IMG/VR virus record: IMGVR_UViG_3300027896_000010
Span: 129,438-193,437 of that record
Source of the DNA: a virus
DNA: 64,000 bases
Strand: one strand, 5' to 3'
Below the pieces are notes generated by a model that did no database searches, was not told where the DNA came from, and saw only the letters and a program-made list of their open reading frames with translations. Of the stretch, positions 4,044 through 57,822 are shown in pieces (position 1 is the stretch's first letter; the number at the start of each line of letters is the position of its first letter). Both the position numbers and the translations under genes were made by a program.

Positions 4044-4120
4044 TGGCGGGGTCAACGAGATTCGAACTCGTGTTGGCAGATTGAAGGTCTGCTATCCTGA
4101 CCTGACTAGATGATGACCCC
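4044..4120 (-). tRNA. tRNA-Glu(TTC)
   Basis: Cloverleaf: acceptor GGGGTCA/TGACCCC, anticodon arm GCAGA-CCTTCAA-TCTGC, T-arm CACGAG-TTCGAAT-CTCGT, G73, encoded CCA. Confidence 0.9.
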
Positions 4121-40420: not shown

Positions 40421-40443
40421 TGCTCTCCTGCCTCTATAAGAAA

Positions 40444-40474
40444 GAAAGCCCCAGCATTATTAACTGGGGCTTTC
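40444..40474 (-). terminator. intrinsic terminator
   Basis: GAAAGCCCCAG-9 nt-CTGGGGCTTTC then TTTCTT on the minus strand. Confidence 0.75.
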
Positions 40475-40500
40475 ATTTCATAACGTTACTTTGCCCCAGC

Positions 40501-41139: not shown

Positions 41140-41161
41140 CTCTCTGTTTATATTGGTTAGA

Positions 41162-41192
41162 GGGGGCGACTGCGAATTGCAAAATCGCCCCC
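41162..41192 (-). terminator. GC-rich stem-loop after major capsid gene
   Basis: GGGGGCGA-15 nt-TCGCCCCC; no clear T tract. Confidence 0.55.
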
Positions 41193-41223
41193 ATAAAACC
41201 GTTTCTTTGCTACTCCAATAAGC

Positions 41224-42243
41224 CTAAAGCTTATGGATTCGCACGATACCTCGCGGGTTCACTATCAACATCCCTATAAGCTCGTCCAAAACCCAACCGA
41301 CCTCAAGATAATCAGGCCGGGGATACTCGACGGCTTCTAGCGAATAACGGACAGGCATGTAGCCCAAGTACTCCGGTGCTGGAGTAACAAAAGCCGTACC
41401 TCTGGTCACAACGATGGACTTCGTAATTTGAAGCTCACCGTACCTGACTATCGGTACACCATAGACCACATCGTCCTTCATTTTCCAGCCGCCAGAATCA
41501 ATCGCCCATGTGAACAAGTCGTAATATTCGGCATTGTTCATCACGATACGGTCAGCCTGTAGTTCGTGGCTGGCTACGATGCTCATAGCAGTTGCAAAAG
41601 CCGCAGCGCCCCATGCTCCAGTATTTGAGACCACATGATTAGGGGTCACGGTATGAAGAGGATGAGTGCTGTAATCAGTTAGAGCAACATTGAGCAAAGC
41701 GAACAGACGAATGTCCTCCTTTTTCCTGATGTCATCTTCGGTGAAATCCTTCGCGTACTTGACAATATCCGCACGAAGTGCATAGATATCATCCTTACCT
41801 ACGACCGGGAACGAAGCGACATGGAAAAGCTCCACGTGAACGCGCTTACCCTCGAACCTGCGTACCATAACCTGCCCTTCGGACTGGTTAAGAATGTACG
41901 CTAGCCCAAGCGTATCAAGCACATCGTACTCTGGAGCCTCGCCCTTTCCAAGCGGGGTCTCGACCACGATGTTACGCACGAGGCCTTCATACTTAAGCTT
42001 GACCATGATGGGAGCCACCATAGCTTGGCCTATTTTCTGAAGGCTTTCTCGCGAGTCACGGTATGCATGAAGAATCTTGCTCAGAGCTTCCTTAGAGGGA
42101 GTTTCGGGAGTCCCACCAGTCGTCTTCGCTATCTTCTGCATCCGCTTCACGTACTCCATAGAAGCATGTGCCTCACGCTGAGGTATTTCGGGGAGTGTAT
42201 CAACTCCCGCTGTCTTTCTTTCTCTCGCCATTTGTATTTCCAC
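41224..42243 (-). CDS. major capsid protein (HK97 fold, Bxz1-like)
   Basis: KIGQAMVAPI...YEGLVRN...YDVLDTLGLAYIL...FEGKRV...VASFP...EDIRLFALL...GWVLDELIGMLIVNPRG recalled as Bxz1-type capsid motifs; synteny. Confidence 0.9.
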   Translation of the reverse strand: MEIQMARERKTAGVDTLPEIPQREAHASMEYVKRMQKIAKTTGGTPETPSKEALSKILHAYRDSRESLQKIGQAMVAPIMVKLKYEGLVRNIVVETPLGKGEAPEYDVLDTLGLAYILNQSEGQVMVRRFEGKRVHVELFHVASFPVVGKDDIYALRADIVKYAKDFTEDDIRKKEDIRLFALLNVALTDYSTHPLHTVTPNHVVSNTGAWGAAAFATAMSIVASHELQADRIVMNNAEYYDLFTWAIDSGGWKMKDDVVYGVPIVRYGELQITKSIVVTRGTAFVTPAPEYLGYMPVRYSLEAVEYPRPDYLEVGWVLDELIGMLIVNPRGIVRIHKL

Positions 42244-42286
42244 CTCCCTTTTAGTAAGATTTTTTGTCGAACATTAGCCCTCCACC

Positions 42287-42802
42287 CTAGGCGGGAGGAA
42301 GCAGTTCAACGGTGATAACGTGACCATCAACCGAAAGTAGCAGAGCTACCGTAGGCTGGTCATCTGCGGTTACGTCTCCCCTCGGAATAAGCTTACCTTT
42401 GTTGCCATCGCTGGTATTACCAACGATAAGCTCGGTATATCCCGAAGAAGACACCGCGTAGGTCGAACCTGAATCAAGGGCATCGCCCATGATTTGATAA
42501 GTCCCCCTATCCTTCCAGATGGCGACAGGGTTAATTCCCGCATTGCTTTCATCTACACTCGCAGTGACGAAATGGTCACACAGGCCGTAGAAGTGGCCCC
42601 CAATAGCGTCAGCCCCAGTCACATCGCCATCAGCCAAATCAAACGTAAAGTCATCAACTAGCTGAAGCACCATGCCCGGGTAGATAGCACCATCAGTAGC
42701 AATACTGTAACCAGTCTTAAGATAGGCTGGCCCGAACGCATCGCCATAATAGAGCGGAGCAAGAGTTCTTATCTCTGTCGGTTTCTTTGTCCACCAAGTC
42801 AT
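42287..42802 (-). CDS. capsid decoration/minor capsid protein
   Basis: RTLAPLY...IYPGMVL...FYGL; immediately upstream of the capsid gene. Confidence 0.7.
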   Translation of the reverse strand: MTWWTKKPTEIRTLAPLYYGDAFGPAYLKTGYSIATDGAIYPGMVLQLVDDFTFDLADGDVTGADAIGGHFYGLCDHFVTASVDESNAGINPVAIWKDRGTYQIMGDALDSGSTYAVSSSGYTELIVGNTSDGNKGKLIPRGDVTADDQPTVALLLSVDGHVITVELLPPA

Positions 42803-42850
42803 ATCTATTCACCTCCTCTTAAAGGTTAATACCAACTCCTAATCCGTTAC

Positions 42851-45800
42851 CTATTGTGGTAGGTATTCGTCGCCCAAGAACATAAATTCAAGACTGTTCT
42901 CGGCATCTTCCATTGAATCATTATCGGAATCATCTACTATACTCGCTTCTATACGAGCTACCGTAGCCATGCCGCTGTTCGCCCTCCCGGGGATTGCTAT
43001 CCTATCTGGACGCCTACGAGATGTCTTCTCGCTACGTTCGGCTTCTTCACTACGGTCTCTCTCTTGAGCCTCGACTACGCTCCTGAAAGCCTCGGTCTTG
43101 CTCTGGATTTCAGCCATGCTGTGAGCATCGACGATTTCCTGAACAGCTTCCCCGACTTCCATGTCAGACCCAGCCCCAGCCCTATCCATCAGGCCGACAA
43201 GACTGATAGCCGCCATGACCTTTTCTTTTTCACTTGCCTCTTTATCCTTCTTGCTCTTCTCGGGAACTTCGATAGGCTCTTCTGCTATATCTCCACCAAA
43301 CCCCTCGTCCTCATTCATGAACATAGGCTCACCAGCGGGGCCAGTCTCTACGTCGAAGTCAAAGTCCTTGTCTTCGAGTTCGCCCTCGCCTTCGCCCTCT
43401 TCGCCTTCTATAACCTCTTCTACCATCTCTTCAAGATGCTCATCGAGATACTTGTCAACAGCCTTCTCGATGTCAGTCTCTTTCTTGTCTTTCTTGTCTT
43501 CCTTCTTCTCTTCTTTGTCTTCTTTCTTATCTTCTTTGTCTTCTGCCTTATCTACCTTATCTTCTGCCTTGTCTGCCTTATCTTCTGCCTTGTCAAACAG
43601 GTCTTCTGCCTTATCCAGTTTTTCTATGTCCTCATCAGCAAGCTCTTTCTTTAGCTCAGCCATAACAGCGGCCTTGACTTTCTGCCACTTCTTATCTGGA
43701 GTGGTCAATGGGTCTGTGCTGTTCGTCTGGACGATAGGATTAACCTTCAAGGTTTCCTTGGGCTGTGACTTCGGAGCTTGGTCTCTGGTCTTCAGAAACT
43801 CTTCGGCAAGCGCCTTGTGAAGCTCTCGCTCCAATTTTGCCTCAAGAGCCTTCTGCTTTTCCCCAGTCACCTTCTGCCACTTGTCAAGAGGAGAAGTGCT
43901 AGTCGTAGTAGGAATAGGGTTCTCCTTCTGGGTCTCATAGGGCGGCTTGCCCTTATCGGCTGGCTCTTTGGTAAGAAGCTCTTCTGCTTCCCTGCGAGTC
44001 GGCTCACGACCATGCTCCTTCGCCCACTTGGTATAAGACCACTCTTTCTTCCGACGAGCATACTCTGCCTCACGAGCAGTCTCAGCCGGACCCTGCTCAG
44101 AGTTAATCCTAGTAGTCTCACTATCATGGTGGTCTACATAAGAATCACCCTTACGCCTCAACCTCGCCTCTTTACGAGACTGTTGCTGAAGCTTTTGGTC
44201 AACCTTCTGCCTTATAGCCTTTACAATGTCATCTGACTTTTTCTCAACCATTTGATTTACCCCCTGTTGTCCACCAGCAGGACTAGTAACCGTAGGTGCA
44301 TATGAAGGCGCTTGTGCATAAGCCCTACGGTTCGTTGTTACTGGCTTCCTTTCAGCAGGGCCAGTAGCATCATTAATTTTCTTGACTTCATCGGCATATA
44401 CTTTACCGTGCCACGCACGGTTATTTCCTATCACATAAAGAGCATGGAATTCGCCCAGCTTCTGTTCACCATCTTCTACAATCTGTTTGGTGCCACTATC
44501 AATCCTTACAACCCTTGCTTTCTTGCCAGTAATCTCTTCCCCATTCATTGATTTTACGGATGGGTTTTCGCTGACAACCTCAACCCAATCACCAGCTTTA
44601 ATGACATTTTCATTAATGTCTTTGGCGACTAGACGCTTACGAGAAGTCCTGCGAGAAGCAGTCGCTTCAAATTTTTCAAGGTCGTTTTTCATTCTATCCA
44701 TCTCCTTCTGTGAGTTAAAAATTCTACTTCCAATTTCTTGCATACTTGCAACCCATCCGCTATAGATGGATTTGATAGAATCCCAAAGACCTGCATCGAT
44801 TTTCAGGCTGGCTTTGAGAGATTTCTCCAGTTCTTCTTCCGTAAAAGTAGGCATGGTCACAGGTTCTGTAGCCTCAAAAGCCTCTTCCTCTCCCTCTTCT
44901 GGAACGACTCCCGTCTGGAACAGCCCCTCTATGAACTCAATCACTTCTGGCAACATCTTGAGTAACTGAGTAGGTCTGCCAGTAGTCTCCAAAAACCTCT
45001 TAAAAATCATCTGTTTCTTGGGGTTACCCTTGACGATTTCATGCATCACAGCAAGAATGCCTTCCCAGCCCTTTTCAGCCGCATCGGCGGCATCCTCAGC
45101 GCCAGCCAAAAGTGAATCGGCATATTTATCTGCGAAATAACTCTGGAAATCTGAGAGACCAATTCTAGGATTCTCTAGAATCCCCCACATTTGAGTTGAA
45201 ACTGTTACCCCGTCAATACTAAGCATCTGCCCATTATCAATTACGTCAGCAACCTCTTCCAGATTAAGTACCTTATCAATCTCGGCATTGATTACGCCTT
45301 GGAATTTGCTAATTATCTTTGACAAAGCATTGAGCAATGCCCTGCTATTGCGAAACATCGGAAGCGCTCTAGCCAGCCAAGGATATTGAGCAACCATCTC
45401 TTTTCTATCTATATGAACTTCAGAGCCTTCTCCCTTTGGTTTCTTTCGAGGTTCCCCTAGCTCTGGAAACTCAACAGGATGTTTTGCCTCGAACTCATCC
45501 TTGAGTCTTTTCTTCTCTTTCTGTAGCTGGGCTGGAGACAATTCTGTATCAACTGCTAGCTTGGACAAAGCAATTCGCAATTGCATTCTATCCGCAATGT
45601 ACCCATTTACATCAAACTCGCTTGCCATCAACTCCCTCCTGTGCTCCGAACGCTTTGCTGTTTTGCTTTGCATCATCCCACCACATTCGGGGCATGGAGT
45701 CTCATTCGCTGGTTGCCCTTCTATGTGCGGCTCTGTGTGACCACAACTTGTGCATACATCAATCGCTTGTGTTTCCTGACCAATTGCACTCTTCCTTCCC

Positions 45801-46435
45801 ATCAGAATCCTCTTGGCGGTTGCATTCTGATTCTGATTCTCTGAGTATTTATCCTGAGGATTAAACCCAGCCTGATTAGCCGCCTGTGGAAACTGGCAGT
45901 TGACCTTCCCTTCCTGCTGTTCCTTGTTATACATACAGCCATTGCAATCGGTTGCTACTATTTGGACAGGTAATGCCGAACAAGTAAACGGCACTCCACC
46001 CGCCCCGCCTGTATCTTCATCAGAGCCATGGAACATCTGCTCATCTGAATCAGGCATCAATACAGAAATGCCATCTCCCTCTTCATCCCCACCAGCATCT
46101 TCATTGGCTTGGTCTTCGGCTTCCTCGTTGCGGGGAGTCACCTTGGACATATCAAGATTATCTTGCTCTTTATCATCCTTATCAGTATCTTTGCCCTTAC
46201 CTTTATCCTTGACTTGCCGCAATGCTTTCTCAAGAACATCTGCAAGTTCAGTTGCCACATCATCGTCAGCGGCTTCGGTAAATATCTTGGGGGTATTATC
46301 ACTAGCCTGTTTCACAGGAGTCTCTGCCCTGATTTCATCGAAAAAATCATCCTCACATTCACAGGCATCAGGATGCTTCCCAAGCTTGTCTGCTAGAGCT
46401 TTGAGACTCTCTGATAACGTGCGTTTCTTGCCCAT
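42851..46435 (-). CDS. large scaffold/prohead core-like protein
   Basis: Highly acidic coiled-coil and DKAEDK low-complexity tracts; between protease and capsid genes. Confidence 0.65.
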   Translation of the reverse strand: MGKKRTLSESLKALADKLGKHPDACECEDDFFDEIRAETPVKQASDNTPKIFTEAADDDVATELADVLEKALRQVKDKGKGKDTDKDDKEQDNLDMSKVTPRNEEAEDQANEDAGGDEEGDGISVLMPDSDEQMFHGSDEDTGGAGGVPFTCSALPVQIVATDCNGCMYNKEQQEGKVNCQFPQAANQAGFNPQDKYSENQNQNATAKRILMGRKSAIGQETQAIDVCTSCGHTEPHIEGQPANETPCPECGGMMQSKTAKRSEHRRELMASEFDVNGYIADRMQLRIALSKLAVDTELSPAQLQKEKKRLKDEFEAKHPVEFPELGEPRKKPKGEGSEVHIDRKEMVAQYPWLARALPMFRNSRALLNALSKIISKFQGVINAEIDKVLNLEEVADVIDNGQMLSIDGVTVSTQMWGILENPRIGLSDFQSYFADKYADSLLAGAEDAADAAEKGWEGILAVMHEIVKGNPKKQMIFKRFLETTGRPTQLLKMLPEVIEFIEGLFQTGVVPEEGEEEAFEATEPVTMPTFTEEELEKSLKASLKIDAGLWDSIKSIYSGWVASMQEIGSRIFNSQKEMDRMKNDLEKFEATASRRTSRKRLVAKDINENVIKAGDWVEVVSENPSVKSMNGEEITGKKARVVRIDSGTKQIVEDGEQKLGEFHALYVIGNNRAWHGKVYADEVKKINDATGPAERKPVTTNRRAYAQAPSYAPTVTSPAGGQQGVNQMVEKKSDDIVKAIRQKVDQKLQQQSRKEARLRRKGDSYVDHHDSETTRINSEQGPAETAREAEYARRKKEWSYTKWAKEHGREPTRREAEELLTKEPADKGKPPYETQKENPIPTTTSTSPLDKWQKVTGEKQKALEAKLERELHKALAEEFLKTRDQAPKSQPKETLKVNPIVQTNSTDPLTTPDKKWQKVKAAVMAELKKELADEDIEKLDKAEDLFDKAEDKADKAEDKVDKAEDKEDKKEDKEEKKEDKKDKKETDIEKAVDKYLDEHLEEMVEEVIEGEEGEGEGELEDKDFDFDVETGPAGEPMFMNEDEGFGGDIAEEPIEVPEKSKKDKEASEKEKVMAAISLVGLMDRAGAGSDMEVGEAVQEIVDAHSMAEIQSKTEAFRSVVEAQERDRSEEAERSEKTSRRRPDRIAIPGRANSGMATVARIEASIVDDSDNDSMEDAENSLEFMFLGDEYLPQ

Positions 46436-46443: not shown

Positions 46444-47175
46444 CTACATTTCTTTCAAGAGATTGACTAGTTTATCTAGCTGTTCTCTTACTTGATTTGC
46501 ATAGTGGATAGCATCTTCATTAGGCTCCACATACTCTATCTCTGTTTCTAGAGACGAGAAATGGTGTCCTAAAAGCCCAACTATCATCTTCACTTTTTCT
46601 ATCTTATCTGCCCCCAGCACTTTGCTTGCCGCGATATCCAGCGCAGGAGCCTCATAAGCCATCTTGAACTCCTCGCCGCTCATGGCATCTATCTCAGCCT
46701 CGGTATAGCCCTTGGCTAGCAGTTCCTCATACATCTCGTTATACCAATCTTCTGGGCTAGAAGGTTGTGTGAAATCATAAATCTCGCCACCCAGAACTTC
46801 TTTTACCGACTCGGTGACAATACGAGTGAGAGAGGCTTCTGAAATACCCTCCATGGAACTGAAATCTCCACCAGCCCTTTCGTCCTGTATCTTCTTTTCT
46901 TTCTTAAGCCCTCTCGCCACTGACTTCCATTCTCCCGATTCAGTTTCTGCCTTACTAATCATAAAGCCCTCTATGCGGTCTTTTTCGCCGGTAGCAAGCC
47001 ATTTACCGAACACAGCATTGCCATTCGTTGCGGCGCTCGAACCAAACCCACCATCAGGAGCGCCAACACATTTAAATAGCCGATGTTCAACATCTTTAAA
47101 TTCTGGCCTGAGATACTGGGCTTTGACTACAACTATCTCGCCCTTTTTAATATCCCTCTGTAGTGCATTAGCCAT
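46444..47175 (-). CDS. modular hypothetical protein with RIVTESVKEVLGG motif
   Basis: 243-aa ORF; N-terminal globular domain, shared motif, acidic helical domain. Confidence 0.7.
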   Translation of the reverse strand: MANALQRDIKKGEIVVVKAQYLRPEFKDVEHRLFKCVGAPDGGFGSSAATNGNAVFGKWLATGEKDRIEGFMISKAETESGEWKSVARGLKKEKKIQDERAGGDFSSMEGISEASLTRIVTESVKEVLGGEIYDFTQPSSPEDWYNEMYEELLAKGYTEAEIDAMSGEEFKMAYEAPALDIAASKVLGADKIEKVKMIVGLLGHHFSSLETEIEYVEPNEDAIHYANQVREQLDKLVNLLKEM

Positions 47176-47184: not shown

Positions 47185-48129
47185 CTATAGTCTTTTTGCT
47201 ATCGAATCTAGGAGTGATGCTACATGCTCCTGATTCACAACAGGTCGGTGAGCTTCCGCAAGCAATTCATATACAAGAGCTTTGTCGGCTCTGTCGTTAT
47301 CAAGCAACTCCTCACCAAGAACCTTCAGGGTCACTCCTAGAATCTCAAGATTACAGGCAGTACTCTGAAGCCCGCTGCTCAGTTCAAGCAGTGTTGCTGA
47401 AGTATCAGCAGGATTCTTGACGGCTGATATCTCAAAGAAACTAAGGTCTCGGTTATCTTCATAAACATAAATCTTAGGGGTGTTCCCAGCCTTCTGAATC
47501 CATTGCCCCTTCTGGTTCATCACATGGGAGCAATACTCGGCTGGCGTCTTCGCCAGATTGCCACATGCTGAACAATAACTTCTCTCGACATCGGTTCCCA
47601 TACTGAACGTGGAAATCTTATTCTCAAGCAATGCTGTGGCATACTTGGGATACGATTCGGCATCAACCTCTACCAGAAGCTCTACCCAATCGTCCCTGTT
47701 GAAGTTCACAGCTAATTTGTCGTCAATCAGGGCGTAATGCTCTATATGTTCTTCGGGAGTCCAGATGACAGGGTCATATTTGAATTTGCTATCAAACGAC
47801 TCTCGCTGGGATTTCAGCAAATCGGCAGAAGCTTCTTGCTTATGAAATGCCGCATCGACGACTACGCCACGAGCCTTGCGCCAGTTGCTATTGTCATGTT
47901 CTATGAAATGGGGGCATCCCCTGAAAGTTTCCCAGTGAGCCTCAAGCTCCATCGGTATGAAGCCATCATGGTTCTCATTGCATCGACTCGAAATAGCTCG
48001 GACAGTTATATAAAGATAGCCATCTCTAGCATCGAATTCAAAATCTGAATTATTTGCTAATTTACGAAATGACTTGGCACTATCAGCTACAGCAAGTATT
48101 GGAGAATTTGCATACTTGGTTATTGACAT
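47185..48129 (-). CDS. prohead (capsid maturation) protease
   Basis: VRAISSRCNENHDGF...HFIEH...SMGT...CSACGN...YCSH...FFEISAVKNPAD; start MSITKY at 48129. Confidence 0.8.
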   Translation of the reverse strand: MSITKYANSPILAVADSAKSFRKLANNSDFEFDARDGYLYITVRAISSRCNENHDGFIPMELEAHWETFRGCPHFIEHDNSNWRKARGVVVDAAFHKQEASADLLKSQRESFDSKFKYDPVIWTPEEHIEHYALIDDKLAVNFNRDDWVELLVEVDAESYPKYATALLENKISTFSMGTDVERSYCSACGNLAKTPAEYCSHVMNQKGQWIQKAGNTPKIYVYEDNRDLSFFEISAVKNPADTSATLLELSSGLQSTACNLEILGVTLKVLGEELLDNDRADKALVYELLAEAHRPVVNQEHVASLLDSIAKRL

Positions 48130-48782
48130 AAACCCCTCTCTATCATTTTCTGCCGATAGAAAATAATCCACTCATCACGCCGAACATTTGCCCTCAAATT
48201 ACAGGCGTTACAAACTGCCACCAAATTCTCTGGCAGACAATTCTTTTTGTCATAATCAATATGATGAACATCTAACTTGCGACCAGCCTCTCGCTGTGTT
48301 TTGCCACAATGTTGACAAGTCCACCCATCTCGCTCTCTTATAAAATCCTTAAGATTTCTATTAAATTCTGGGGAATAAGGCTCAAATGAAATCCCACCCT
48401 TCCATCGAGGGTGCTTTTCTCCCCTTTTTGCCTCACTCAACTTTCGCTTATGCTCTTCAGATAACACCTTGCCAGTATGAGCCTCACTCAATTTCTGTTT
48501 GGCTTCTTCGGTATGATGTCTCCCATTGGTTGGCCCCTTTTTGCCTAACCAATATCGAGCATTGTTTTCTTTGATTTTCTGCTTTGACTCTTCTGTATGC
48601 TTAAACCCCTCAAGACTTTTACTTATTTTGGGGCCAACAGTCTCACCCCTAGGGAATCCTTTACGGCATTCTCTGGAACAAAAATACCTCTGATAATCAT
48701 TCAGAGGTTCTCCACACTTTAGGCACCCATCTGGATAAGCCCCGTATTCACCTACCCCGTTCGGGTCTTTCTTCCTTGGCAT
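48120..48782 (-). CDS. HNH homing endonuclease with NUMOD3 repeats
   Basis: KHTEESKQKI / HHTEEAKQKLSEAH / LSEEHKRKLSEAK repeats; CQHCG...DVHHIDYDKKN...NLVAVCNACN. Confidence 0.92.
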   Translation of the reverse strand: MPRKKDPNGVGEYGAYPDGCLKCGEPLNDYQRYFCSRECRKGFPRGETVGPKISKSLEGFKHTEESKQKIKENNARYWLGKKGPTNGRHHTEEAKQKLSEAHTGKVLSEEHKRKLSEAKRGEKHPRWKGGISFEPYSPEFNRNLKDFIRERDGWTCQHCGKTQREAGRKLDVHHIDYDKKNCLPENLVAVCNACNLRANVRRDEWIIFYRQKMIERGLCQ

Positions 48783-48864: not shown

Positions 48865-49302
48865 CTATAACATCAAAAACTCTTGAAGCTCCTCAATACC
48901 ATCCCCATTAAACACAATAGTCAGCACTTGATTCTCTGATTTCGCATCTGATTTCAAAGCATCAAGGTTACGAGCCTCAAATTCCCCAGTAGCTTCTGAT
49001 ATAAGGTCATTAAGCTCGTCATCTGCAATATCACTGCCAGAAATGGCAACCATCATGTCTTCTGGAAGGTCGTAACTAACCCCAAACCCCTTCAGTCGAG
49101 TCTGGTTGCCAAGTGCTTCGTGCCTGTTTCTCCACTTCATACTCAGATTAGGAGATACGATAATCTGCTCATCGTCTTCCGAGCCTAGCACCTCACGAGC
49201 TACCTCTTCATTCCAGAGGGGCATCTCCTTCGTCGTCACTTTCGTTATCCTCGCCAGTTTCTCCATTCTTCTCTGCCTCCCTTTTCTTACGAGATTCCTC
49301 AA
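48865..49302 (-). CDS. hypothetical protein
   Basis: 145-aa ORF; true start probably near MEKLARI. Confidence 0.6.
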   Translation of the reverse strand: MRNLVRKGRQRRMEKLARITKVTTKEMPLWNEEVAREVLGSEDDEQIIVSPNLSMKWRNRHEALGNQTRLKGFGVSYDLPEDMMVAISGSDIADDELNDLISEATGEFEARNLDALKSDAKSENQVLTIVFNGDGIEELQEFLML

Positions 49303-51553
49303 GTTCGGCTAGCTTTTCTTTCACCAATTCCATATCCTCATCAGTTAACTGAGCCGATTTTGCTATCGTATTTATAACTGTGAGAGATTTGAGGTTATCA
49401 TCAGCCCTATCTGCCTTACGAGTCTCATCGAAAGTCTTACGGACTACCTCATTTCCCTCCTTGTCAACATAGATTGCGGCTCCAGCCACACCAGCGCCAC
49501 CTCCAGCAGGAGCGCCACCTCCACCGCCACCAGCAGGGGCGGGAGCGGCTCCAGCCCCACCCCCGGGAGCCGTCTCGGGAGCCTCAGGAGCGGCTATCTG
49601 CTCAGGTGTAGCCTTGTCTCTCATCTCGTCAGATATATCAGGTCGATTCTTAATCCTTGGTGCGCCACCCATCTCTTCATCATTCATCATGTCTGGTGGT
49701 GGGCCACCGCCGATATCGCCCTCTGGCTGTTCCATGTCTCCGAACATACTCTCAGGAACCTCACCACCAAACTTTGTGGCAACTACCTTGGCAATATATT
49801 CTTTATCAATCGGGATGCCGTGTTCCTTAAACGCCTTCTCCATCTCACGAATGGTTTCAGCCTTGGCGAGTTCACGCTCTATCAGTTCAGTCTTGATTTT
49901 GTCTGTTTCGTCATCTAGCGAGTAATCGATTCCAACCATCATCGCGCCATCAGAAATTGGGACGCCCATCTGCCGTAACTCTGTGAGGAACTGTCTCTGA
50001 GTAGCCTCATCTCTCAAGTTCATCGATGCGAGATGGACATCAGGGATAAGCAGTTTCGGAACCTCTCTGATTACAAGTTCGCCCTCTTCATCTAGCGTCT
50101 GGATACGCTCATAAATAATCTCCCTACGACCACCTTTCAAATTGTAGTCATAGAATTCATGCGCCCTAGCAACTGGCTCATATCGTTTCTTATATAGGAA
50201 CTGCTTCAGCATCTCTTGGTTATGAGCTAGGTTCTGTGACAGAATGTCTGCACTCAATGCCGTGCTTGCAAACGGTGCGCTTCCACCACCCTTAAGCAGG
50301 TCAAGAGGAATACCAAAAATCATGCACATCTTTTCTTCAATAGCGGCGAACTCTTCGCCCAGTTTCGGCATAACTTCAAAGCCTAGGACGGCTTCGATAT
50401 TAACTGCAAAGTGAGTCGAAAGAACTTTATAGTCGCTATCCATCGCCTCTTCTAATGTCCTCTGTAAGTGGTCAATATCTTCCTGCATAGGCATATAGGG
50501 GAATCCATCTGGCATAGTAATTGAAGCATCCCCCAGCTTAGCAAGAATCAACGGAGTTATCATACGCTCTGTGATAGCGTGGTAAGCCCTGAATAGTTTT
50601 TCTTCTATCATCATGTGTCGGAGAATCCTCATTAACAAAGGCTCACCACGAGGTGCCCACCTTGGGCCACGCTTCAACTGGGTGACTCTATCAGCACTTA
50701 ATTCGAATCCATGACCTGCCTGTATCGCCTTAAGAATGTCATCATTCAGGCTCTGAGTTAGCACCTGAAATTCAACGTATGGGCGACCTTTAGTGGCGAT
50801 TTCTTGTAGATATGATGGCGGCTCAAAAATGAATCTACGCTGTCCAAGAATCGGGTAAACTTCGACCCGAACATGAATCGGAGACATCAATTCATCAGCA
50901 ACCCAACAGCCTAAGTCATCCGACCAATCTGCCATGGGGAGAACCTCGCCAACCTTCCAAAATTCCGTATTCAAGTCGAGCAAAAACTGGAGGTAATCTA
51001 GCTCTTCCAAGAAGAGGTGGTCAAAGAACTTTTGGATGTATGGGTCTTTGCATTGATGCTCAAAACCGACGAGCGGAAACCGTGCATAAATGTCCACCAA
51101 AGTCGGAAAAAGATAGTGTGTTGCATAGAAGAATTGAGTCCATTGATAGAGCCGCTTGTATTGCTCCGGGTCTGTCTGAATGTTAAACGGAATCATCCAG
51201 AGCGTAGGACTTCGTGTCGGGTCCCAATACGCTTTTTCTCTCGCCCTTTGCGCTACAGGCCCAGTACCTGCTTCGCGTCTAAACCCTGACCTTACTGCAT
51301 TCTCAGAAGCCGCCATTGCACTGCTGGCGTTCTGTATAAATCGAGACGCAGATTGGCTATAGAATTCTTGTTGACCTATCGGTCTTGCAGGAAGCGTAAT
51401 GTTATGACCAGTGCCGACATCATAAGAGCCAGTCTTACCATGTTCACTAGCCATGCGATGTATCTTCATCGCTTCCTGTGTGGTAGCATTATCGGGAATG
51501 ATAATGCCATCTATGGGTGGCAAGTATCTACTCTCGCCCTGTTCCTCAGCCAA
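49208..51553 (-). CDS. portal protein with long low-complexity C-terminal extension
   Basis: FFYATHYLFPTLVDIYARFPL...EFWKVGE...RGEPLLMR...AKLGD recalled as Bxz1-type portal motifs; synteny. Confidence 0.85.
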   Translation of the reverse strand: MAEEQGESRYLPPIDGIIIPDNATTQEAMKIHRMASEHGKTGSYDVGTGHNITLPARPIGQQEFYSQSASRFIQNASSAMAASENAVRSGFRREAGTGPVAQRAREKAYWDPTRSPTLWMIPFNIQTDPEQYKRLYQWTQFFYATHYLFPTLVDIYARFPLVGFEHQCKDPYIQKFFDHLFLEELDYLQFLLDLNTEFWKVGEVLPMADWSDDLGCWVADELMSPIHVRVEVYPILGQRRFIFEPPSYLQEIATKGRPYVEFQVLTQSLNDDILKAIQAGHGFELSADRVTQLKRGPRWAPRGEPLLMRILRHMMIEEKLFRAYHAITERMITPLILAKLGDASITMPDGFPYMPMQEDIDHLQRTLEEAMDSDYKVLSTHFAVNIEAVLGFEVMPKLGEEFAAIEEKMCMIFGIPLDLLKGGGSAPFASTALSADILSQNLAHNQEMLKQFLYKKRYEPVARAHEFYDYNLKGGRREIIYERIQTLDEEGELVIREVPKLLIPDVHLASMNLRDEATQRQFLTELRQMGVPISDGAMMVGIDYSLDDETDKIKTELIERELAKAETIREMEKAFKEHGIPIDKEYIAKVVATKFGGEVPESMFGDMEQPEGDIGGGPPPDMMNDEEMGGAPRIKNRPDISDEMRDKATPEQIAAPEAPETAPGGGAGAAPAPAGGGGGGAPAGGGAGVAGAAIYVDKEGNEVVRKTFDETRKADRADDNLKSLTVINTIAKSAQLTDEDMELVKEKLAELEESRKKREAEKNGETGEDNESDDEGDAPLE

Positions 51554-51556: not shown

Positions 51557-54151
51557 CTAACTCCTTTTTTGACGTTCTATATCAGTAACACCTAGCTTCC
51601 TACGATAGCGATTAGCCGCAGTCCAGAAGGGATGCGGTTCGGTAGAAGTTTTCTCCACATCCTTAAGACCTAGAAAGGAACCGCACTCTGGACACCGATG
51701 AGGTTGCTCTTCATCTTTCCAGTCATTAAAGTGCTTATCCACCGCTAAGTCTTTATTTTCCCCTGTCCAACCGCAATCAGTACAATGCACTTCGGGTTCT
51801 GCTTCGGCAGTCTTACGAGAAGCATATGCCTCAATAGAATTCATGCAATAATCCATCAATCGCTTTCTCAAATCAAGCGGTTCGTTCTCAAGCATAATTC
51901 TGAATTCTTCCTCGGCTTCTTCTATTGTTAGCTCATCTAACATAACAGAAGCCGCCACACCATCTATATAATCTCCGTATGATTCTAAAGCCTCTTCAAG
52001 TTCTTGGTCTTCAGCAGTCTTATGCCCTGCGTACCTATGCAGAAAAGGGTCTTCATCAGTAGTCGGGATGACTTCTCCAGTCGTATCCTTCCCCTTAAGA
52101 GATTGGTCTATCTGGCGCTTGCCCCTCGCATACGATTCCTCAAGCTGGTCAGCCACGCTAGACTCGGTGACCTCGCCCTTCTTGACAGCCGCTTTGATAG
52201 CATCATCAACGACATGGAAATCGTCTTCTGTCATATAATCCATCATCATCTTCTCGAAGAGCGGAGTAGAGCCTCGCCAGTCTTCCATATCTTCAGCACT
52301 GTACTTGGCTGTCCATGTGTACATATTGCCGTTGTACTGAACTGCTCCACGAGCCATGCTCAGTTTGGCATGAGGGTCAATCGGATTAGCAGGGACTATC
52401 TTCTCTACCATCACCCTAGGCTCGGAGACCGTGTTGCGGTCAGGCCAAGTACGAGCGGCAGCTTCCCTGCGAGAAGCAATAGTATCACCAGCCTGATATT
52501 CTCCATTCAATAGACTATCTTCGATTTGATATTGCTCTTCCAGACTAATAGCCCCCTCATCTGGATAAAGCATTCCTTCTACCATGTCCAAATCATTATC
52601 AAAAGCCATACCAACTTGTTCGGCATCAATAGCTGATAGACCATAATTCTCAGCCTCTGAAACCAAAGCTGTTCTTATGTTGGGTATGCTACGCAAATCA
52701 CCTTGCGTAGCCGCAATAATGGTCTCCCACCATTCCTTGCCTAATGACTGGATATACCCTTGGGCTGGATGTTGGGCAGTCTTGCGACCAAATGACTTCG
52801 GGACTTCTTCCAGAGACTTATCTTCTGGATTGAATTCATTGGAAACCATCTCGGTACGCTCATCAAAGAACCCTTCGTCCTTAAGGTCTTCAAGAACACT
52901 ATTAAGCGTATGATAGTTGTAGTCTTCCAGTATGTCATAATCCTCATCGGTAAACACATAATCAGGCATATCATCCGTTAGGAACTTAGATATTTCATCT
53001 CTAAAAAGTTCGTCGTCTACCATCCCACCATGTGTCCAGCCTTGTGACTCCCAAATATCATTATCTGCTTGCATCAGTTGCATGGCAGTAGAGCTTACAT
53101 CAGACATATCTTTTGTCCATGCAGTCTTGCGAGAAGCATAATTTGATTCCTGTGGGTTCTTTATTGTCCCTACCTCATCGGGTTCCATTTCTATAAGAAG
53201 CGTATCAGCAGAACCACATTCTGGGTTAGTACACTCTTCAACATTGCCCTCATGATGCTCACCTGTCATACCACAGCGTTGACACCACCATGCTTCAACA
53301 TAATCCTCCTCAGCAGTCTTGCGAGAAGCCCTCGTCAGTTTCATATCTTTCTCATAGCTCTTGACATCTTCATCACGAGCCTTGAGCTTGTCTACAAAAT
53401 CATTAGCGCCTTCCTTGGTGCGGAAATATTCCATCACAGGATTAGTCTGTACTGTTGTAGTCCACTCAACTACCCACAGACCATCCTTGGGAGACTGAGC
53501 TACCTTGGTCTTAAGCCCTTCATACTTAGCAATGCGCTGGCTAGCCACCATCGGCTCTCGTAGTTCTTCTTCCTCCTCTTCATCACGCTTACGCCTACGG
53601 AACCGCTCTGGAACAGGAGGAGCCATCTCTACCACGATTTCCTCTTCCTTAGGGCTAAGCTCTCTGGGACGCCCCTCGAACTGTCGCCATGGCTTCATAT
53701 CCCTAGCGGCTTCACGACTACTGGGCCGATTCTTGCCTTCTGGATTACACTCTGGACACGGCTCAAGCCCAAGACCTTGGCATCTGGAGCATTCCTTCGA
53801 TGGCGGGTTTACTCCGCGCTCCATACACTCACCACACGTTATCCAGCCGTCATCGCACTCTCCACAACTGCCAACAGAAGTTTCCGCTTCTACACTCGCC
53901 CTAGGAGCGATTTTATCCATACCCCTATCGCTGGCGGCTTCTGCCTTCAGAACCTCTTCGTAGACCTCTTCATACACAAGCTGAGCGTCCGAAGAAGCTA
54001 TCCTGTCCTCTTGGACAAAGTGGTTCACAGCAGAGCCTATAACCAATATAAGCTCATCCTCTTTGTCGCCAAGCATCTCGTCATCCTGCATGGCTTCTTT
54101 GACAAGCTCTACCAACTCAGTTATTGCCTTGCCAATCTTCCTTGAAAACAT
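51557..54151 (-). CDS. modular polyprotein-like head-associated protein (864 aa, five KTA sites)
   Basis: Short domains and Zn fingers separated by ASRKTA/GRKTA/GHKTA; directly upstream of portal. Confidence 0.75.
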   Translation of the reverse strand: MFSRKIGKAITELVELVKEAMQDDEMLGDKEDELILVIGSAVNHFVQEDRIASSDAQLVYEEVYEEVLKAEAASDRGMDKIAPRASVEAETSVGSCGECDDGWITCGECMERGVNPPSKECSRCQGLGLEPCPECNPEGKNRPSSREAARDMKPWRQFEGRPRELSPKEEEIVVEMAPPVPERFRRRKRDEEEEEELREPMVASQRIAKYEGLKTKVAQSPKDGLWVVEWTTTVQTNPVMEYFRTKEGANDFVDKLKARDEDVKSYEKDMKLTRASRKTAEEDYVEAWWCQRCGMTGEHHEGNVEECTNPECGSADTLLIEMEPDEVGTIKNPQESNYASRKTAWTKDMSDVSSTAMQLMQADNDIWESQGWTHGGMVDDELFRDEISKFLTDDMPDYVFTDEDYDILEDYNYHTLNSVLEDLKDEGFFDERTEMVSNEFNPEDKSLEEVPKSFGRKTAQHPAQGYIQSLGKEWWETIIAATQGDLRSIPNIRTALVSEAENYGLSAIDAEQVGMAFDNDLDMVEGMLYPDEGAISLEEQYQIEDSLLNGEYQAGDTIASRREAAARTWPDRNTVSEPRVMVEKIVPANPIDPHAKLSMARGAVQYNGNMYTWTAKYSAEDMEDWRGSTPLFEKMMMDYMTEDDFHVVDDAIKAAVKKGEVTESSVADQLEESYARGKRQIDQSLKGKDTTGEVIPTTDEDPFLHRYAGHKTAEDQELEEALESYGDYIDGVAASVMLDELTIEEAEEEFRIMLENEPLDLRKRLMDYCMNSIEAYASRKTAEAEPEVHCTDCGWTGENKDLAVDKHFNDWKDEEQPHRCPECGSFLGLKDVEKTSTEPHPFWTAANRYRRKLGVTDIERQKRS

Positions 54152-54162
54152 ATCGTCCTCCT

Positions 54163-57100
54163 CTACTCTCGCTCACGTAGATAAGCCGTGAAGTGGTCTC
54201 CACTCTCGCAAAGCCACGCTTCATACACTTCTAATCCGGGGTTTAAACTCTCAAGTGTCGTAGCCAGTGCCGTCCCTGCCGTAGCCGAAAACGGGTCGTG
54301 GTTCGGCACGTATTCCTCAAACGAACCAGTTAGCTCGAAAGTCTTACCTGTACTCGCACAGGCTCTGCACTTCGTATCCCAATCGTTATACTCAAAAGGC
54401 TCCGCTTTATACACGCTTCCACAACCATCGCACTTCTTTACTTCGTCAATCTTGTCCCATGGGGAAGGTCTCTGATAAACATCAGACATCCCTTTGCCCC
54501 CATCCATCATGCCGTCCTGCGAAGTGTACTGACCATCAGCAGTCTTGCGCGAAGCTATCTTCATGCGCTTCTTGATTTTGTCTCTGACTTTCCCAAGCTC
54601 AAAAGCCGTGCCTTCATCAAGTTCGCCATCTTCCTCATAGCCCTTAGCATAGACAATGGCTTCATCCAGCCCGTAGACTTTCATATCCCTGAAGAACTGC
54701 ATCATCAGCGGTACGTTATTACGAGCGCCAAGCTCCAGAGTCATCTCCAGTTCTCTTATATAAGAAGAGTTGTGCTTCATGTCCCAGTCCTGTATCTCTT
54801 GGAACATGAGACGCTTACCAGCGGCGGTCTTATGAGAAGCTTCCCTTCCCCCCATCTCTTTGGCCTGACAATCTGGACATAAGAATCTTTGATTCGGTGA
54901 CTCTTTTACAAGTTCACGCTGAGGTATTTCAAATAGTGTTCCACACTCATCACAAGTAGTCTGAGTGAACTCATCATCTCCCCACACTTGCTCTTGATGT
55001 TCTTGGTCTTTTATATCAACACCCAAATCACTCATCTCTTTGGCTTTAGCTTCAGATAATGGGCAGGGTTTCCAGTACTTATCGCGTTCGATAGTAATGC
55101 CCATTGGCCCCCTGACAGACTCAAGCTCGTCAAGCGAGAAATACCCAAGCTCAGGATAATCGCCTATAACGAACCCGAAGAACAGTCTCTGCTCAGGGTC
55201 ATACTCCGTAGCCAGCCATGTCCAGTTGCTCCATGGGGTAAAGAACTTCACCCATACCATTGGGTCTGGATTATCTTCCTGACTATAAAGCGGAGGAATT
55301 TTATTGAGGATGTCCTTGGTCATCAACATCATAGCAGTCTTACGGGAACCGAATATCTCCCGCTCGTACTCAGCCGACCTAGCCCAGTTATCTAGTTCCT
55401 CATCGCTCATGCTGGAAGGGATGACCCCATCCAGAGCAAGCTCGGCTAAAATAGCATTGGTGAGATGGTAATTATAGTCTTCAAGGATATCCATATCGCC
55501 CTCGTTGAGGACATAAGCCTCAGACATCGACATCAATTTGTCTTTGATATACTTTTTGGCTTCATCATAAGTTGGGCGATGCTCAGGAGTATGGATACCA
55601 TTGGTAAAATCCATCAGCATCTTGGCACCACGAGACACATCTGGCATATCCTCTGTCCATGCGGTCTTAGAAGCTTGCGTTGGTTGCACAGGAGTTCTTT
55701 GCCTGCCGTGACCGTATTCTACTTTGGCAAGATAGAATCTGCCCTCAGACCTTATGAGAGCATCATAGGGCCAATACGCCTCGGCATCCAAAGTCTGAAC
55801 TAAATCCCACCCGACTTCAAAGTTCATCCAGTCTAGGTCTTCTTGGTCAAGGACATAAGCACCATCCTCATCAAGACCATCCATTGGCTTAGAAGCATCG
55901 GCGCTCTGGGCTTTCTCTACCCACAACTCAGATACATTGAAATCTTCCCAATTGGCGGTCTTGCTCCCACCCCTAGTGACCCTCTCATGCTTCTTCCTGA
56001 TACAATCCCCACAGACGTTCCACTTGCTCAGGAACTGCTCTGGGCCTAGCTCCTTGCCACACTCTTCGCATTTAACAGACGGGAGATTATCAAAAGCTTC
56101 CTGCACATCTTCGGGTCTCGCCGTGTAGCTCCTATCCTCTCGACCAGCCGCCTTGTCCTTATCCTTTATCCTCATCTCAAGAAGCTCACCCATTATCTGG
56201 GTCGTTACAACTTTCTCCGCAAGGGTAGAAGTACTCCAATGATTTAGTATGTTATAGAGCCTCACACCTTCTTCTAGAGTTATCTTTTCTTCCATGACGG
56301 CAAGGCTCTTCTCATTTTGATATGCGGATAATTCTTGAAGGGGCAAATCTTCGAGGGACTCTTCCAGATGCTTGACCTTATCGGGGTCAGCCTCTGCTAT
56401 CTTTTTCCCCATGCCGATGATTGCGGAATCAATACGATTAGCAGTTTTACGAGAAGCCAAAACTTGCCCATGCTCTTTCGCGTACTCCACAATATCATGA
56501 ACATTCGGAGAAGGATAATCAGATGAATCAGGATTGTTCATTCTGCGTATCATGTCTGCAACCTCACCAGCCGCATCTGGCGAGAGGTTGATTTGATGAT
56601 TTTGGTTACCATCTTCATCTGCCTCAATTGACCAATAGGCCAATGTCCCACTCGCCGGGTATTCTTCTGGGCCAGCCACCAATGTGCCACTAGAGTGTTC
56701 CCCTTCCCAACTCAATTCCATCTCCACGCCCGTCTGAGAAGAATCCTGAGGCAGAAGCTCTTGGAAGTCCACCGCAGTTTTACAAGAACCCTCTTTCAGA
56801 TAAGCCTTGATACGGCTCTTGATTTCATAAGCTTGGTCTTTGGTAAGTTTGATATCATTTGCAACCATCTCATATGGGCGGTATCCTGTGTCGAAACGAG
56901 ACTTCTTTAGCTTCGGAGCTTTCTTTTCTTCGCTCTCTGGACTGGGAAGCTCTTCGTCCCAACGACCCGGGAGCAGTTCACCTTTTTTTAGCTCACCACG
57001 CTTGTGTTTCTTCTTGGAATTCTCTTCTATGATATTAAAGACTCCATGAGCATATTCATAATCTCTCGGCGTCTCAAGTTTACCAAGCTCTTCTTCGGCG

Positions 57101-57822
57101 GCCCCTTCTCCTTGATGCCAATGCTTGCGTTGCTTTTTGGTCTTCACGAAGCCCGGGTGCTTGGCTTCTACGTCTCGTGCCACCCTTTGTGTGAATCCGC
57201 AGCTATCACAGACACGACGATAAGAACCGTACCGTTTCAGACTGCCATGACAAACTGGGCAATCTGTCTTTGCCACAAATGTCTGGAATGTCTGCGGTCT
57301 GCCACGCTCATTTTGCATTCTAAAATCATTTATGAAGTTAGAAACCTCTTCTTCGCGTTCCTCATCGGACTGGAATGTTTCAGGGGGGTAGGCTGGTTGG
57401 AAGTTGGGGGCTGGCTGATGTTTACGAGGCTTCTTGGGGATAGCTTGCTTCTCAGCCTCTATTTTAGAAGCCTCAGAGGGACGAGAGGCGAATGGCTTAC
57501 CCTCTACGTCATAGCCATAAGACTCCTGCTCGACCATGCCTGTACCCTCACAATCAGGACATTCTTCAACCTCTCCCGTCTCTACATCATTCTCAATGAC
57601 AGGAGCCATGCCGGTTCCATCACAAATGGGACATTTTACTTTCCCAGCAGTTCTACGGGCCTCTACCTCGTCAAGATACTCATCAACTAGAGATGCGTAT
57701 TTGGGGTCGAACACAGTATTGCACCCACTCTCTTGATATAGGCAATCACATATCTCGACAGCCTCTTCTCTAGATAGCTTTTTTGAGAAATGTCGCCTAC
57801 AAGCTCTCTCATTTGGATTCAT
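54163..57822 (-). CDS. modular polyprotein-like head-associated protein (1219 aa, eight K/R-T-A sites) including a DUF2958-like domain
   Basis: MMLMTKDILNKIPPLYSQE...VKFFTPWSNWTWLATEYD...ELGYFSLDELE...IERD is the DUF2958 pattern; several CxxC fingers. Confidence 0.8.
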   Translation of the reverse strand: MNPNERACRRHFSKKLSREEAVEICDCLYQESGCNTVFDPKYASLVDEYLDEVEARRTAGKVKCPICDGTGMAPVIENDVETGEVEECPDCEGTGMVEQESYGYDVEGKPFASRPSEASKIEAEKQAIPKKPRKHQPAPNFQPAYPPETFQSDEEREEEVSNFINDFRMQNERGRPQTFQTFVAKTDCPVCHGSLKRYGSYRRVCDSCGFTQRVARDVEAKHPGFVKTKKQRKHWHQGEGAAEEELGKLETPRDYEYAHGVFNIIEENSKKKHKRGELKKGELLPGRWDEELPSPESEEKKAPKLKKSRFDTGYRPYEMVANDIKLTKDQAYEIKSRIKAYLKEGSCKTAVDFQELLPQDSSQTGVEMELSWEGEHSSGTLVAGPEEYPASGTLAYWSIEADEDGNQNHQINLSPDAAGEVADMIRRMNNPDSSDYPSPNVHDIVEYAKEHGQVLASRKTANRIDSAIIGMGKKIAEADPDKVKHLEESLEDLPLQELSAYQNEKSLAVMEEKITLEEGVRLYNILNHWSTSTLAEKVVTTQIMGELLEMRIKDKDKAAGREDRSYTARPEDVQEAFDNLPSVKCEECGKELGPEQFLSKWNVCGDCIRKKHERVTRGGSKTANWEDFNVSELWVEKAQSADASKPMDGLDEDGAYVLDQEDLDWMNFEVGWDLVQTLDAEAYWPYDALIRSEGRFYLAKVEYGHGRQRTPVQPTQASKTAWTEDMPDVSRGAKMLMDFTNGIHTPEHRPTYDEAKKYIKDKLMSMSEAYVLNEGDMDILEDYNYHLTNAILAELALDGVIPSSMSDEELDNWARSAEYEREIFGSRKTAMMLMTKDILNKIPPLYSQEDNPDPMVWVKFFTPWSNWTWLATEYDPEQRLFFGFVIGDYPELGYFSLDELESVRGPMGITIERDKYWKPCPLSEAKAKEMSDLGVDIKDQEHQEQVWGDDEFTQTTCDECGTLFEIPQRELVKESPNQRFLCPDCQAKEMGGREASHKTAAGKRLMFQEIQDWDMKHNSSYIRELEMTLELGARNNVPLMMQFFRDMKVYGLDEAIVYAKGYEEDGELDEGTAFELGKVRDKIKKRMKIASRKTADGQYTSQDGMMDGGKGMSDVYQRPSPWDKIDEVKKCDGCGSVYKAEPFEYNDWDTKCRACASTGKTFELTGSFEEYVPNHDPFSATAGTALATTLESLNPGLEVYEAWLCESGDHFTAYLRERE

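Follow-up and report, generated by a model that had tools for sequence, protein, structure and literature searches.

Predicted head polyproteins with recurrent SRKTA joints beside the portal gene of a distant relative of phage G

Why does one short peptide recur a dozen times in two adjacent proteins encoded beside the portal gene of a large uncultured phage, and what does it separate? We addressed this question in the final 64 kb (64,000 nucleotides, hereafter the window) of the 193,437-bp IMG/VR virus record IMGVR_UViG_3300027896_000010, in which all genes treated here are located on the minus strand. The two open reading frames (ORFs) and their translations correspond to P0002 (1219 amino acids (aa), 54163..57822), with seven KTA and one RTA tripeptides, and P0001 (864 aa, 51557..54151), with five KTA; they are predicted to be polyproteins composed of about 10 modules of 59-170 aa and about 9 modules of 59-149 aa, respectively. 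Judging from sequence comparisons, we consider it fairly probable that both are head polyproteins and that the prohead protease of the phage cuts them at (K/R)-x-A. Delivery of the resulting pieces into the host as effectors, suggested by analogy, appears to us somewhat short of an even chance.

An earlier note on this DNA had listed 13 positions with KTA or RTA in the two proteins, and we were able to locate every one of them in the two minus-strand ORFs. Together (2083 aa) the proteins contain 12 KTA and two RTA: KTA is found at residues 278, 342, 457, 711 and 780 of P0001 and at residues 348, 459, 621, 719, 828, 998 and 1093 of P0002, which has RTA at residue 57, and the usual context of a site is (A/G)-S-(R/H)-K-T-A. 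The other RTA, at residue 493 of P0001, lacks the upstream Ser/Gly-basic context and was counted as a probable chance occurrence rather than as a joint. Composition or low complexity as the source of the recurrence has the shortness of the motif in its favor and nothing else, and can be regarded as practically negligible: composition-preserving shuffles of the pair (n=20,000) gave on average 0.54 KTA and at most 5, against the 12 observed. The remaining 254 ORFs of the 193-kb genome (58,267 aa) contain only 11 KTA, which corresponds to a 30-fold excess in the pair (Fisher p 2.6e-12, Poisson p 2e-14), and a similar enrichment is seen in the Rhodococcus phage Finch (see below). The comparison against shuffled sequences suggested in the earlier note and that against the rest of the genome came out in its favor, and KTA is not equally frequent genome-wide; it is the most frequent tripeptide in P0001 and P0002. 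The 5-mer S-[RQHK]-[KR]-[TIVELM]-A occurs 11 times in the genome, nine times in P0001/P0002 and once in a 1194-aa head protein, and 16 of the 25 genome-wide matches to R-(K/R)-x-A are located in head-module proteins. A 165-aa ORF outside the head module (4120-4617, minus strand) has C-S-K-T-A at residues 42-46, the only S-K-T-A context outside the head genes.

Only one close relative of this phage was found, on a 32-kb Logan contig (L005/L009) with a portal protein 80% and a protease 83% identical to those of the window; it encodes one orthologue of each polyprotein, namely P0004 (867 aa) for P0002 and P0155 (1018 aa) for P0001, and no other full-length homologues of either protein are known to us from our searches. 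A blastn search against phages gave no match, and neither a portal-only search nor an alignment of the portal N-terminus against viral and metagenome contigs yielded further close relatives. The comparison with this relative revealed four weaker variant sites: SSREAA (149), ASQRIA (208) and SRREAA (565) in P0001, and TQRVA (215) in P0002. With these included, about 19 segments of 59-170 aa can be distinguished in P0001 and P0002; six of them share the 15 CxxC motifs (zinc-ribbon signatures), and one contains DUF2958, in line with the proposal that the sites separate small unrelated domains. Our best reading is that the modules are small and fold independently, comprising zinc ribbons, helical domains, one DUF2958 and two paralogous modules.

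Following P0002 from the N-terminus (a slash marks the end of each joint), the first joint, EARRTA/G (residues 54-59; 57646..57663), precedes a zinc-finger module that is absent from P0004 together with the TA of the motif. At the variant joint FTQRVA/R (210-215; 57178..57195) a 53-aa insertion relative to P0004 begins directly after R-V-A, and at GSCKTA/V (345-350; 56773..56790) the homology to P0004 stops. ASRKTA/N (456-461; 56440..56457) is the reference copy of a family of 18-nucleotide (nt) DNA repeats, D1, which is discussed below. GGSKTA/N (618-623; 55954..55971) follows a zinc-ribbon module 69% identical to one in a protein of another viral contig (L004), QASKTA/W (716-721; 55660..55677) opens a module paralogous to P0001 345-459, and GSRKTA/M (825-830; 55333..55350) is located immediately upstream of the module that comprises DUF2958 (Pfam PF11171 at residues 848-919) and a zinc ribbon (831-1000; 54823..55332). 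This module ends in ASHKTA/A (995-1000; 54823..54840), and the one after it is common to the metagenomic polyprotein P0008. The conserved C-terminal module begins at the last joint, ASRKTA/D (1090-1095; 54538..54555), and stands behind K/R-T-A also in P0004, P0028 and P0048; P0008 and P0028 are located on contigs <3 kb.

P0001 exhibits the same organization. Its first joint is the variant SSREAA/R (144-149; 53705..53722), which closes a 56-aa zinc-finger module found in the window and not in the relative. It is followed by another variant, ASQRIA/K (203-208; 53528..53545), where the orthologue has ASRRVA and then an extra 55-aa zinc-ribbon module. At ASRKTA/E (275-280; 53312..53329) the orthologous site in P0155 is SRKIA. 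At ASRKTA/W (339-344; 53120..53137) the orthologue has ASRRTA, and the next module is replaced there by two zinc ribbons, each ending with ASRKTA. The motif of FGRKTA/Q (454-459; 52775..52792) is kept in the orthologue, with unrelated modules flanking it on both sides. The variant SRREAA/A (560-565; 52457..52474) lies upstream of a module 77% conserved with the relative, AGHKTA/E (708-713; 52013..52030) corresponds to AGRKTA in the orthologue, with the homology ending directly after it, and ASRKTA/E (777-782; 51806..51823) is a further copy of repeat D1. The only internal duplication that we found in the pair, P0001 328-459 versus P0002 706-830 (36% identity), extends from joint to joint.

The position of the motif relative to the modules is seen best in insertions and deletions. 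All five clean indels between the window and its relative (at the ASQRIA, TQRVA, EARRTA and SSREAA sites of P0001/P0002, and around a module of ~100 aa in the 1194-aa protein) begin 0-3 residues after (K/R)-x-A; since just 7-9% of positions are that close to such a tripeptide, five out of five would be expected by chance with a probability of ~1e-5. The case of the 1194-aa protein, an acidic, scaffold-like head protein (ORF at 42851..46435), is the most transparent: its 1289-aa orthologue in the relative has the extra module exactly between ASRRTA and ASRKTA, and the window reads ASRRTS at the fused joint. A conserved backbone can be delineated (residues 1-85, 150-275 and 567-711 of P0001 and both ends of P0002), between the parts of which modules have been inserted, deleted or replaced. 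Most middle modules differ, with boundaries flush with the motifs, despite 80% identity of the portal and 83% of the protease, so that the comparison of cassette content called for in the earlier note reveals a hypervariable, cargo-like repertoire. These alignments support the placement of the motif at module boundaries.

Additional evidence is provided by DUF2958, a domain anticipated in the earlier note as "DUF2958-like" and confirmed here by a match to PF11171 (E 4e-17, 63 bits versus a Pfam gathering cut-off of 21). We searched a library of 1.84 billion representative proteins with residues 57-1219 of P0002; nearly all of the 3408 matches were to this module. About 50 of the best 150 matches are DUF2958 proteins of ~100 aa that stand alone, and their residue 1-3 aligns to P0002 831/832, 831 being the first residue after KTA830; P0002 even keeps a Met right after this joint (KTA/MMLMTKDIL). 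In three other, unrelated metagenomic polyproteins (P0102, P0007 and P0019) the domain begins 1-6 residues behind K-(T/S)-A, and it occurs as well in ParB/SNF2-type multi-domain proteins of mobile elements (P0017 and P0116). We found no literature on the function of DUF2958, and the genes neighboring that of P0102 (contig L012) have no PHROG match. Pfam and PHROGs searches with whole P0001 and P0002 returned only DUF2958 and sub-threshold zinc-finger matches, and Atlas searches with P0001 564-711 and the C-terminal module of P0002 returned no usable family.

Is it the peptide or the underlying DNA that is conserved at the joints? The largest family of direct repeats in 51557-57822 is precisely the 18-nt unit encoding the joint, with eight copies of 78-100% identity that show no extension beyond the unit, and the codons used are biased (Arg is CGY in 8/8 sites versus 41% elsewhere, Thr is ACT in 9/13). 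Both features suggest that the joints are partly related by descent and could act as recombination points; near-identical 18 nt at every joint would allow modules to be gained, lost and swapped flush with the motif. One could therefore imagine that P0001 and P0002 are uncut polyvalent proteins active at full length, in which SRKTA is a flexible linker that persists as an 18-nt microhomology for recombination. The repeat family, the codon bias and the indels flush with the joints agree with this, and some polyvalent proteins, e.g. the virion RNA polymerase of N4, are packaged unprocessed (PMC5512222). We nevertheless consider it rather improbable, as there are several indications of selection on the peptide. 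First, SRKTA of one window joint corresponds to SRKIA in the orthologue of the relative, i.e. the residue before Ala varies while K and A are kept, which argues for selection at the peptide and not at the DNA level. Second, the peptide is retained with different codons in GC-rich phages: in Finch, gp12, gp13, gp16 and gp17 around the portal contain 16 KTA in 3100 aa versus 6 in 28,463 aa elsewhere (p 3e-12), and the syntenic proteins of the Bxz1-type phage Mangeria contain RTAG. KTA occurs also in the head module of phage G (nine copies). Third, the protease (15 homologues) and the portal (4 lineages) each keep the site at a single position outside any modular context, where no cassette exchange is involved. 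We thus return to the reading in which the joint is a cleavage signal, with SRKTA being best regarded, from the sequences at hand, as a strong version of a more general (K/R)-x-A signal that the prohead protease would recognize.

Similar punctuation was encountered in other lineages. The protein encoded at 10001-12640 of contig L012 (JGI 3300037067), P0007 and P0019 form another lineage of KTA-jointed polyproteins, in which every joint is embedded in a longer repeat of ~30 aa (E-E-A-x-K-W-E-x-x-N-x-K-Y-K-D-x-F-K-T-A) and the C-terminal module is common (YGYPAKTASLG); the L012 contig also codes for a Cpn60-type chaperonin and a C39-like peptidase. The protein that shares the zinc-ribbon module with P0002 (1168-1172 aa, encoded at 7115-10621 of L004, the 151-kb viral contig IMGVR_UViG_3300020123_000589) has KTA and, in addition, K-(D/Q/K/E)-A variants (SLNKDA, SLDKQA, HKKA) as its punctuation, pointing to another "dialect" of the joint. 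A 323-aa protein of contig L015 contains RTA four times; these copies are part of a 51-aa tandem repeat (DAAAARTAIGA) and were set aside as a motif of a repeat protein with no relation to the joints.

Which enzyme could read such a signal? The claim that the two proteins are encoded beside a portal, with a prohead protease gene nearby, proved correct: PHROGs searches identified the portal protein (49208..51553; phrog_2833, E 2e-110), the prohead maturation protease (47185..48171; phrog_18299, E 4e-20) and the major capsid protein (41224..42243; phrog_2522, E 7e-75). Homologues of the protease are phage G gp19 and, in their N-terminal parts, Finch gp17 and Mangeria gp97; the protease has no Pfam match, and none was found for it and its neighbors even at E up to 5. 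Its AlphaFold2 model, built with 15 homologues (predicted local distance difference test (pLDDT) 76.9), was superimposed with an exhaustive aligner on T4 gp21 (5jbl_A) with Z 11.2 and a root mean square deviation of 2.9 A over 143 of 165 residues, and on the assemblin of varicella-zoster virus with Z 7.0; Foldseek ranked gp21 with a probability of 0.97 and a best E of 0.04-0.06, which is not significant alone. According to this model, the protein would be a serine protease of the T4 gp21/herpesvirus assemblin fold. His78 and Ser176 (in S-M-G) are invariant in the 15 homologues and follow the His-then-Ser order, as judged from the alignment alone, and a Cys3-His zinc site is inserted in the protein. 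Herpesvirus assemblins cleave the Ala-Ser bond, and an Ala in front of the scissile bond is thus natural for this fold.

The protease and its classic substrates carry candidate sites of the same type. Just upstream of the catalytic core, nearly all 15 protease homologues have (R/K)-K-x-A-(S/H), in the window S-F-R-K-L-A/N (48055-48072), which is what a self-processing site would be expected to look like. At an equivalent position in the N-terminal part of the portal we found R-[KR]-x-A-[GS] or a close variant in four lineages: FRREAG in the window (candidate processing site F-R-R-E-A/G, residues 91-96; 51266-51283), MRKTAG in Finch, RQRLAS in Mangeria and QRKMAS in phage G. The 1194-aa protein contains SKTA (257-260), SRKEA (753) and the degenerate joint ASRRTS. 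The Finch and Mangeria proteases each form the N-terminal part of a long fusion protein (Finch gp17, 989 aa) with KTA sites in its C-terminal part; we found no sequence match between this protein and the 1194-aa one. The sites in the capsid protein are weaker than those in the protease and portal; in its longest ORF there are KTA at 10-12, K-I-A at 37-39 and K-I-G/Q at 70-73, and K-(I/M)-A is present in the N-terminal extension of the capsid protein in the window, the close relative and Finch. The latter two of the three window sites are the likelier candidates for processing.

The position of the cut can be approached through phage G, in which mature gp27 comprises 255 of 282 aa according to N-terminal sequencing, with a published mass of 28.2 kDa (PMC5646251). 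As the mass calculated for residues 28-282 is 28.17 kDa, mature gp27 would begin at Q28, i.e. after Ala27, and Q28 aligns to Q73 in the K-I-G/Q site of the window capsid protein. From this assignment and from the preference of assemblins for Ala, we place the cut, probably, just after the joint Ala.

Could another protease be responsible? The joints might be cut in the cytoplasm or after injection, by a host enzyme or by the zincin domain of a 1761-aa polyvalent protein encoded in the same genome. Release of domains by a metallopeptidase has been proposed for polyvalent proteins by Iyer et al. (PMC5512222), and the 1761-aa protein itself carries SQRKIA and HRKLA. Against this stands the presence of one motif at the protease N-terminus, in the portal and in the capsid protein, which are classic substrates of prohead proteases, and no zincin turned up in the motif-bearing head modules of Finch, Mangeria and phage G, where no search was aimed at zincins. 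We consider this alternative very unlikely. Beside the 1761-aa gene there are two genes for small proteins starting with MNQR(K/R)IA, and several small proteins encoded at ~40388-43270 of the genome (G000) and further upstream, outside the window, have a similar amphipathic leader (MD-E/D-x-x-L-E-x-I-I/V ... V-L-A/G); these small proteins may represent a second, leader-type set of cargo for the same protease.

In the scenario that we favor, the polyproteins would be built into the prohead, probably through their conserved N-terminal and backbone modules. Activation of the protease would lead to its self-trimming and to trimming of the portal, the capsid protein and the scaffold-like 1194-aa protein; at the same time it would cut the polyproteins into pieces of 6-19 kDa, which would remain inside the head beside the DNA and probably accompany it into the host. 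What we infer here is the cutting, the packaging, the ejection and any role against the host; retention and entry are suggested by the analogy to the internal proteins of T4 and to phiKZ/SPN3US, by the rapid turnover of modules and by the presence of DUF2958 in the ParB/SNF2-type proteins P0017 and P0116. Alternatively, the polyproteins could serve assembly in the prohead interior and be cut only in order for the fragments to leave the shell before DNA packaging, with nothing being delivered. Most propeptides and scaffold fragments of T4 and SPN3US do exit the head, and several cuts are made in long propeptides (PMC10052503); moreover, the neighboring 1194-aa protein is scaffold-like and has the same sites, and residues 1-85 and 567-711 of P0001 are highly conserved, as would be expected for assembly parts. 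On the other hand, most modules are compact domains of 7-19 kDa (zinc ribbons, DUF2958) rather than coiled-coil scaffold, they are swapped between phages with 80% identical portals, which is a better fit to cargo under diversifying pressure, and DUF2958 is found elsewhere free-standing or in the multi-domain proteins of mobile elements mentioned above. On balance, we regard a purely disposable role as unlikely, although it is the strongest of the alternatives considered.

Several observations weigh against the cleavage and delivery scenario. In part, the pattern may be due to the joints having a common origin or having recombined, and not to selection for cutting. For P0001, the AlphaFold2 model based on a two-sequence alignment is too poor to place the joints in linkers (mean pLDDT 37.8, predicted template modeling score 0.20). 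Among the modules we recognized none with a known anti-defense function by Pfam, PHROGs and, for two modules, Atlas searches. The motif that the earlier note had pointed out in the capsid leader is literally present (the KTA at residues 10-12), but it is absent from the close relative, and we rejected it as a conserved site. The capsid site of phage G, V-A-L-A/Q, has no Lys/Arg two residues before Ala, hence either the site can do without a basic residue or further trimming of the N-terminus takes place. Finally, a cut after Lys (K|TA), as made by HK97-type proteases, is possible.

The genes discussed belong to a head module with the order (minus strand, 5' to 3') 1713-aa repeat protein, 185-aa protein, P0002, P0001, portal, HNH endonuclease, protease, 243-aa protein, 1194-aa acidic protein, 171-aa protein and major capsid protein. 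The succession of large motif-rich proteins, portal, protease, long acidic protein, small protein and capsid protein is the same in the window, L005/L009, Finch and Mangeria. The major capsid protein is of the HK97 type and homologous to phage G gp27 (PDB 6wkk, E 2e-30), and the portal is 35% identical to those of Finch and Bxz1-type mycobacteriophages, which together indicate that the phage is a distant member of the phage G/Bxz1/Finch group of large myoviruses. The gene between portal and protease encodes an HNH/NUMOD3 homing endonuclease (48120-48782). Mobile elements vary in this region: the portal gene of the relative contains an intein (weak Hint and LAGLIDADG matches; L005 14484-18056), and its HNH homologue is located elsewhere. 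The 243-aa ORF (46444-47175) between the protease and 1194-aa genes has neither a family match nor a counterpart in L009, where the two genes abut, and looks inserted. The 1713-aa protein (58711-63852) consists mostly of tandem 14-aa repeats with a consensus of about TETSKARIQVRSTK, arranged in several blocks with a non-repetitive interruption of ~280 aa, and has a single R-K-V-A near its N-terminus (residue 27). It corresponds to four genes in the relative L005, one of them with a weak Laminin_G_3 match, and may be a fiber or surface protein.

Taken one step further, the joint might carry a dual code, in which the SRKTA peptide is a cut signal that turns inserted domains into separate packaged proteins entering the host, the 18-nt repeat is a recombination point, and (K/R)-x-A is common to the whole phage G/Bxz1/Finch lineage of proteases; we put this forward tentatively, as a conjecture that we would sooner doubt than rely on. 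If it were true, the sequences of hundreds of cultured actinophages could directly reveal which cargo they package. The internal or ejected proteome of a large and poorly annotated lineage (phage G, >200 Bxz1-type mycobacteriophages in GenBank, the Finch-like Rhodococcus phages and many uncultured relatives) would become predictable from sequence if the cleavage scenario holds, and dozens of small modules would become candidates for early-acting host-takeover or counter-defense proteins. It would likewise add a third cut-site specificity for phage proteases of the gp21/assemblin fold, besides cutting after Glu (T4, phiKZ) and after Lys (HK97), and would provide a natural design rule for loading several foreign proteins per capsid. 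The claim is directly testable in cultured systems, e.g. phages of Mycobacterium smegmatis or Rhodococcus.

How does this compare with known systems? The description as a "candidate new system" in the earlier note is overstated, as processed packaged cargo with a hypervariable repertoire is known for T4 (PMC3012670) and phiKZ/SPN3US (PMC10052503), and polyvalent proteins were described in 2017 (PMC5512222). The predicted system resembles that of T4 in the fold of the protease, in a short peptide signal on head-internal proteins and in a variable set of cargo. The T4 leader is cut after Glu in an (L/I)-x-E motif, whereas here the signal is (K/R)-x-A with Ala before the predicted cut. T4 encodes its cargo in separate small genes, each with one N-terminal leader of ~10 aa, while here up to ~10 modules are combined in a polypeptide and the signal is an internal joint. 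Each protein contains this joint 8-9 times, P0001 and P0002 have mutually unrelated N-termini, the first site is found only at residue 149 or 59, respectively, and we identified no separate targeting leader in either protein. The T4 internal proteins (IPI, IPII, IPIII and Alt) are highly variable between relatives, IPI* is an injected anti-restriction protein, and foreign proteins fused to the signal are packaged (PMC3012670).

In phiKZ and SPN3US (proteases gp175 and gp245), one motif is found on the capsid protein, the portal with its long N-terminal propeptide, the protease and abundant ejection proteins, and some substrates are cut several times (PMC10052503). The phage analyzed here is similar in having one short motif on protease, portal and putative internal proteins, with the cutting being predicted in our case. 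The differences concern the motif, which in those phages is A-x-E or S/A/G-x-E with a cut after Glu, the outcome, which is mostly the removal of N-terminal propeptides and not the separation of many unrelated modules, and the capsid lineage, which here is HK97-type and related to phage G gp27. The polyvalent proteins defined by Iyer, Burroughs, Anand, de Souza and Aravind in 2017 combine 2 to 15 unrelated domains, are encoded among late or structural genes, are mosaic, and were proposed to be packaged and delivered with the DNA (PMC5512222). P0001 and P0002 resemble them in that ~19 modules are encoded by two genes placed immediately before the portal gene, and DUF2958 occurs also in the ParB/SNF2-type proteins P0017 and P0116. 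What defines polyvalent proteins, however, is their enzymatic effector domains, and an autoproteolytic release, via a zincin-like domain of their own, was proposed for them; in P0001 and P0002, Pfam and PHROGs reveal no such peptidase and no recognized enzyme domain, and the modules are delimited by a motif that is also found on the other presumed substrates of the prohead protease.

Herpesvirus assemblins cut after Ala in (V/L/I)-x-A/S, self-processing included. They share with the protease studied here the fold superfamily, a small residue before the (here predicted) cut and, in the K-x-A/(S/H) at the protease N-terminus, the appearance of the site; the difference is that they belong to eukaryotic viruses, act only on the protease and the scaffold, and have no cargo polyproteins. 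In the open-access literature, the coverage of which is incomplete, we found no paper that links KTA or K-x-A to a prohead protease and none on proteolysis in Bxz1 or phage G that gives a motif. A prohead-protease motif on capsid, portal, protease and internal proteins, together with variable cargo, is thus already known from T4, phiKZ, 201phi2-1 and SPN3US, and what appears to be new here, as far as the sequences indicate, is the use of (K/R)-x-A instead of x-x-E, the combination of up to ten unrelated modules in one polypeptide, and the flush exchange of cassettes at a joint that is at the same time an 18-nt repeat.

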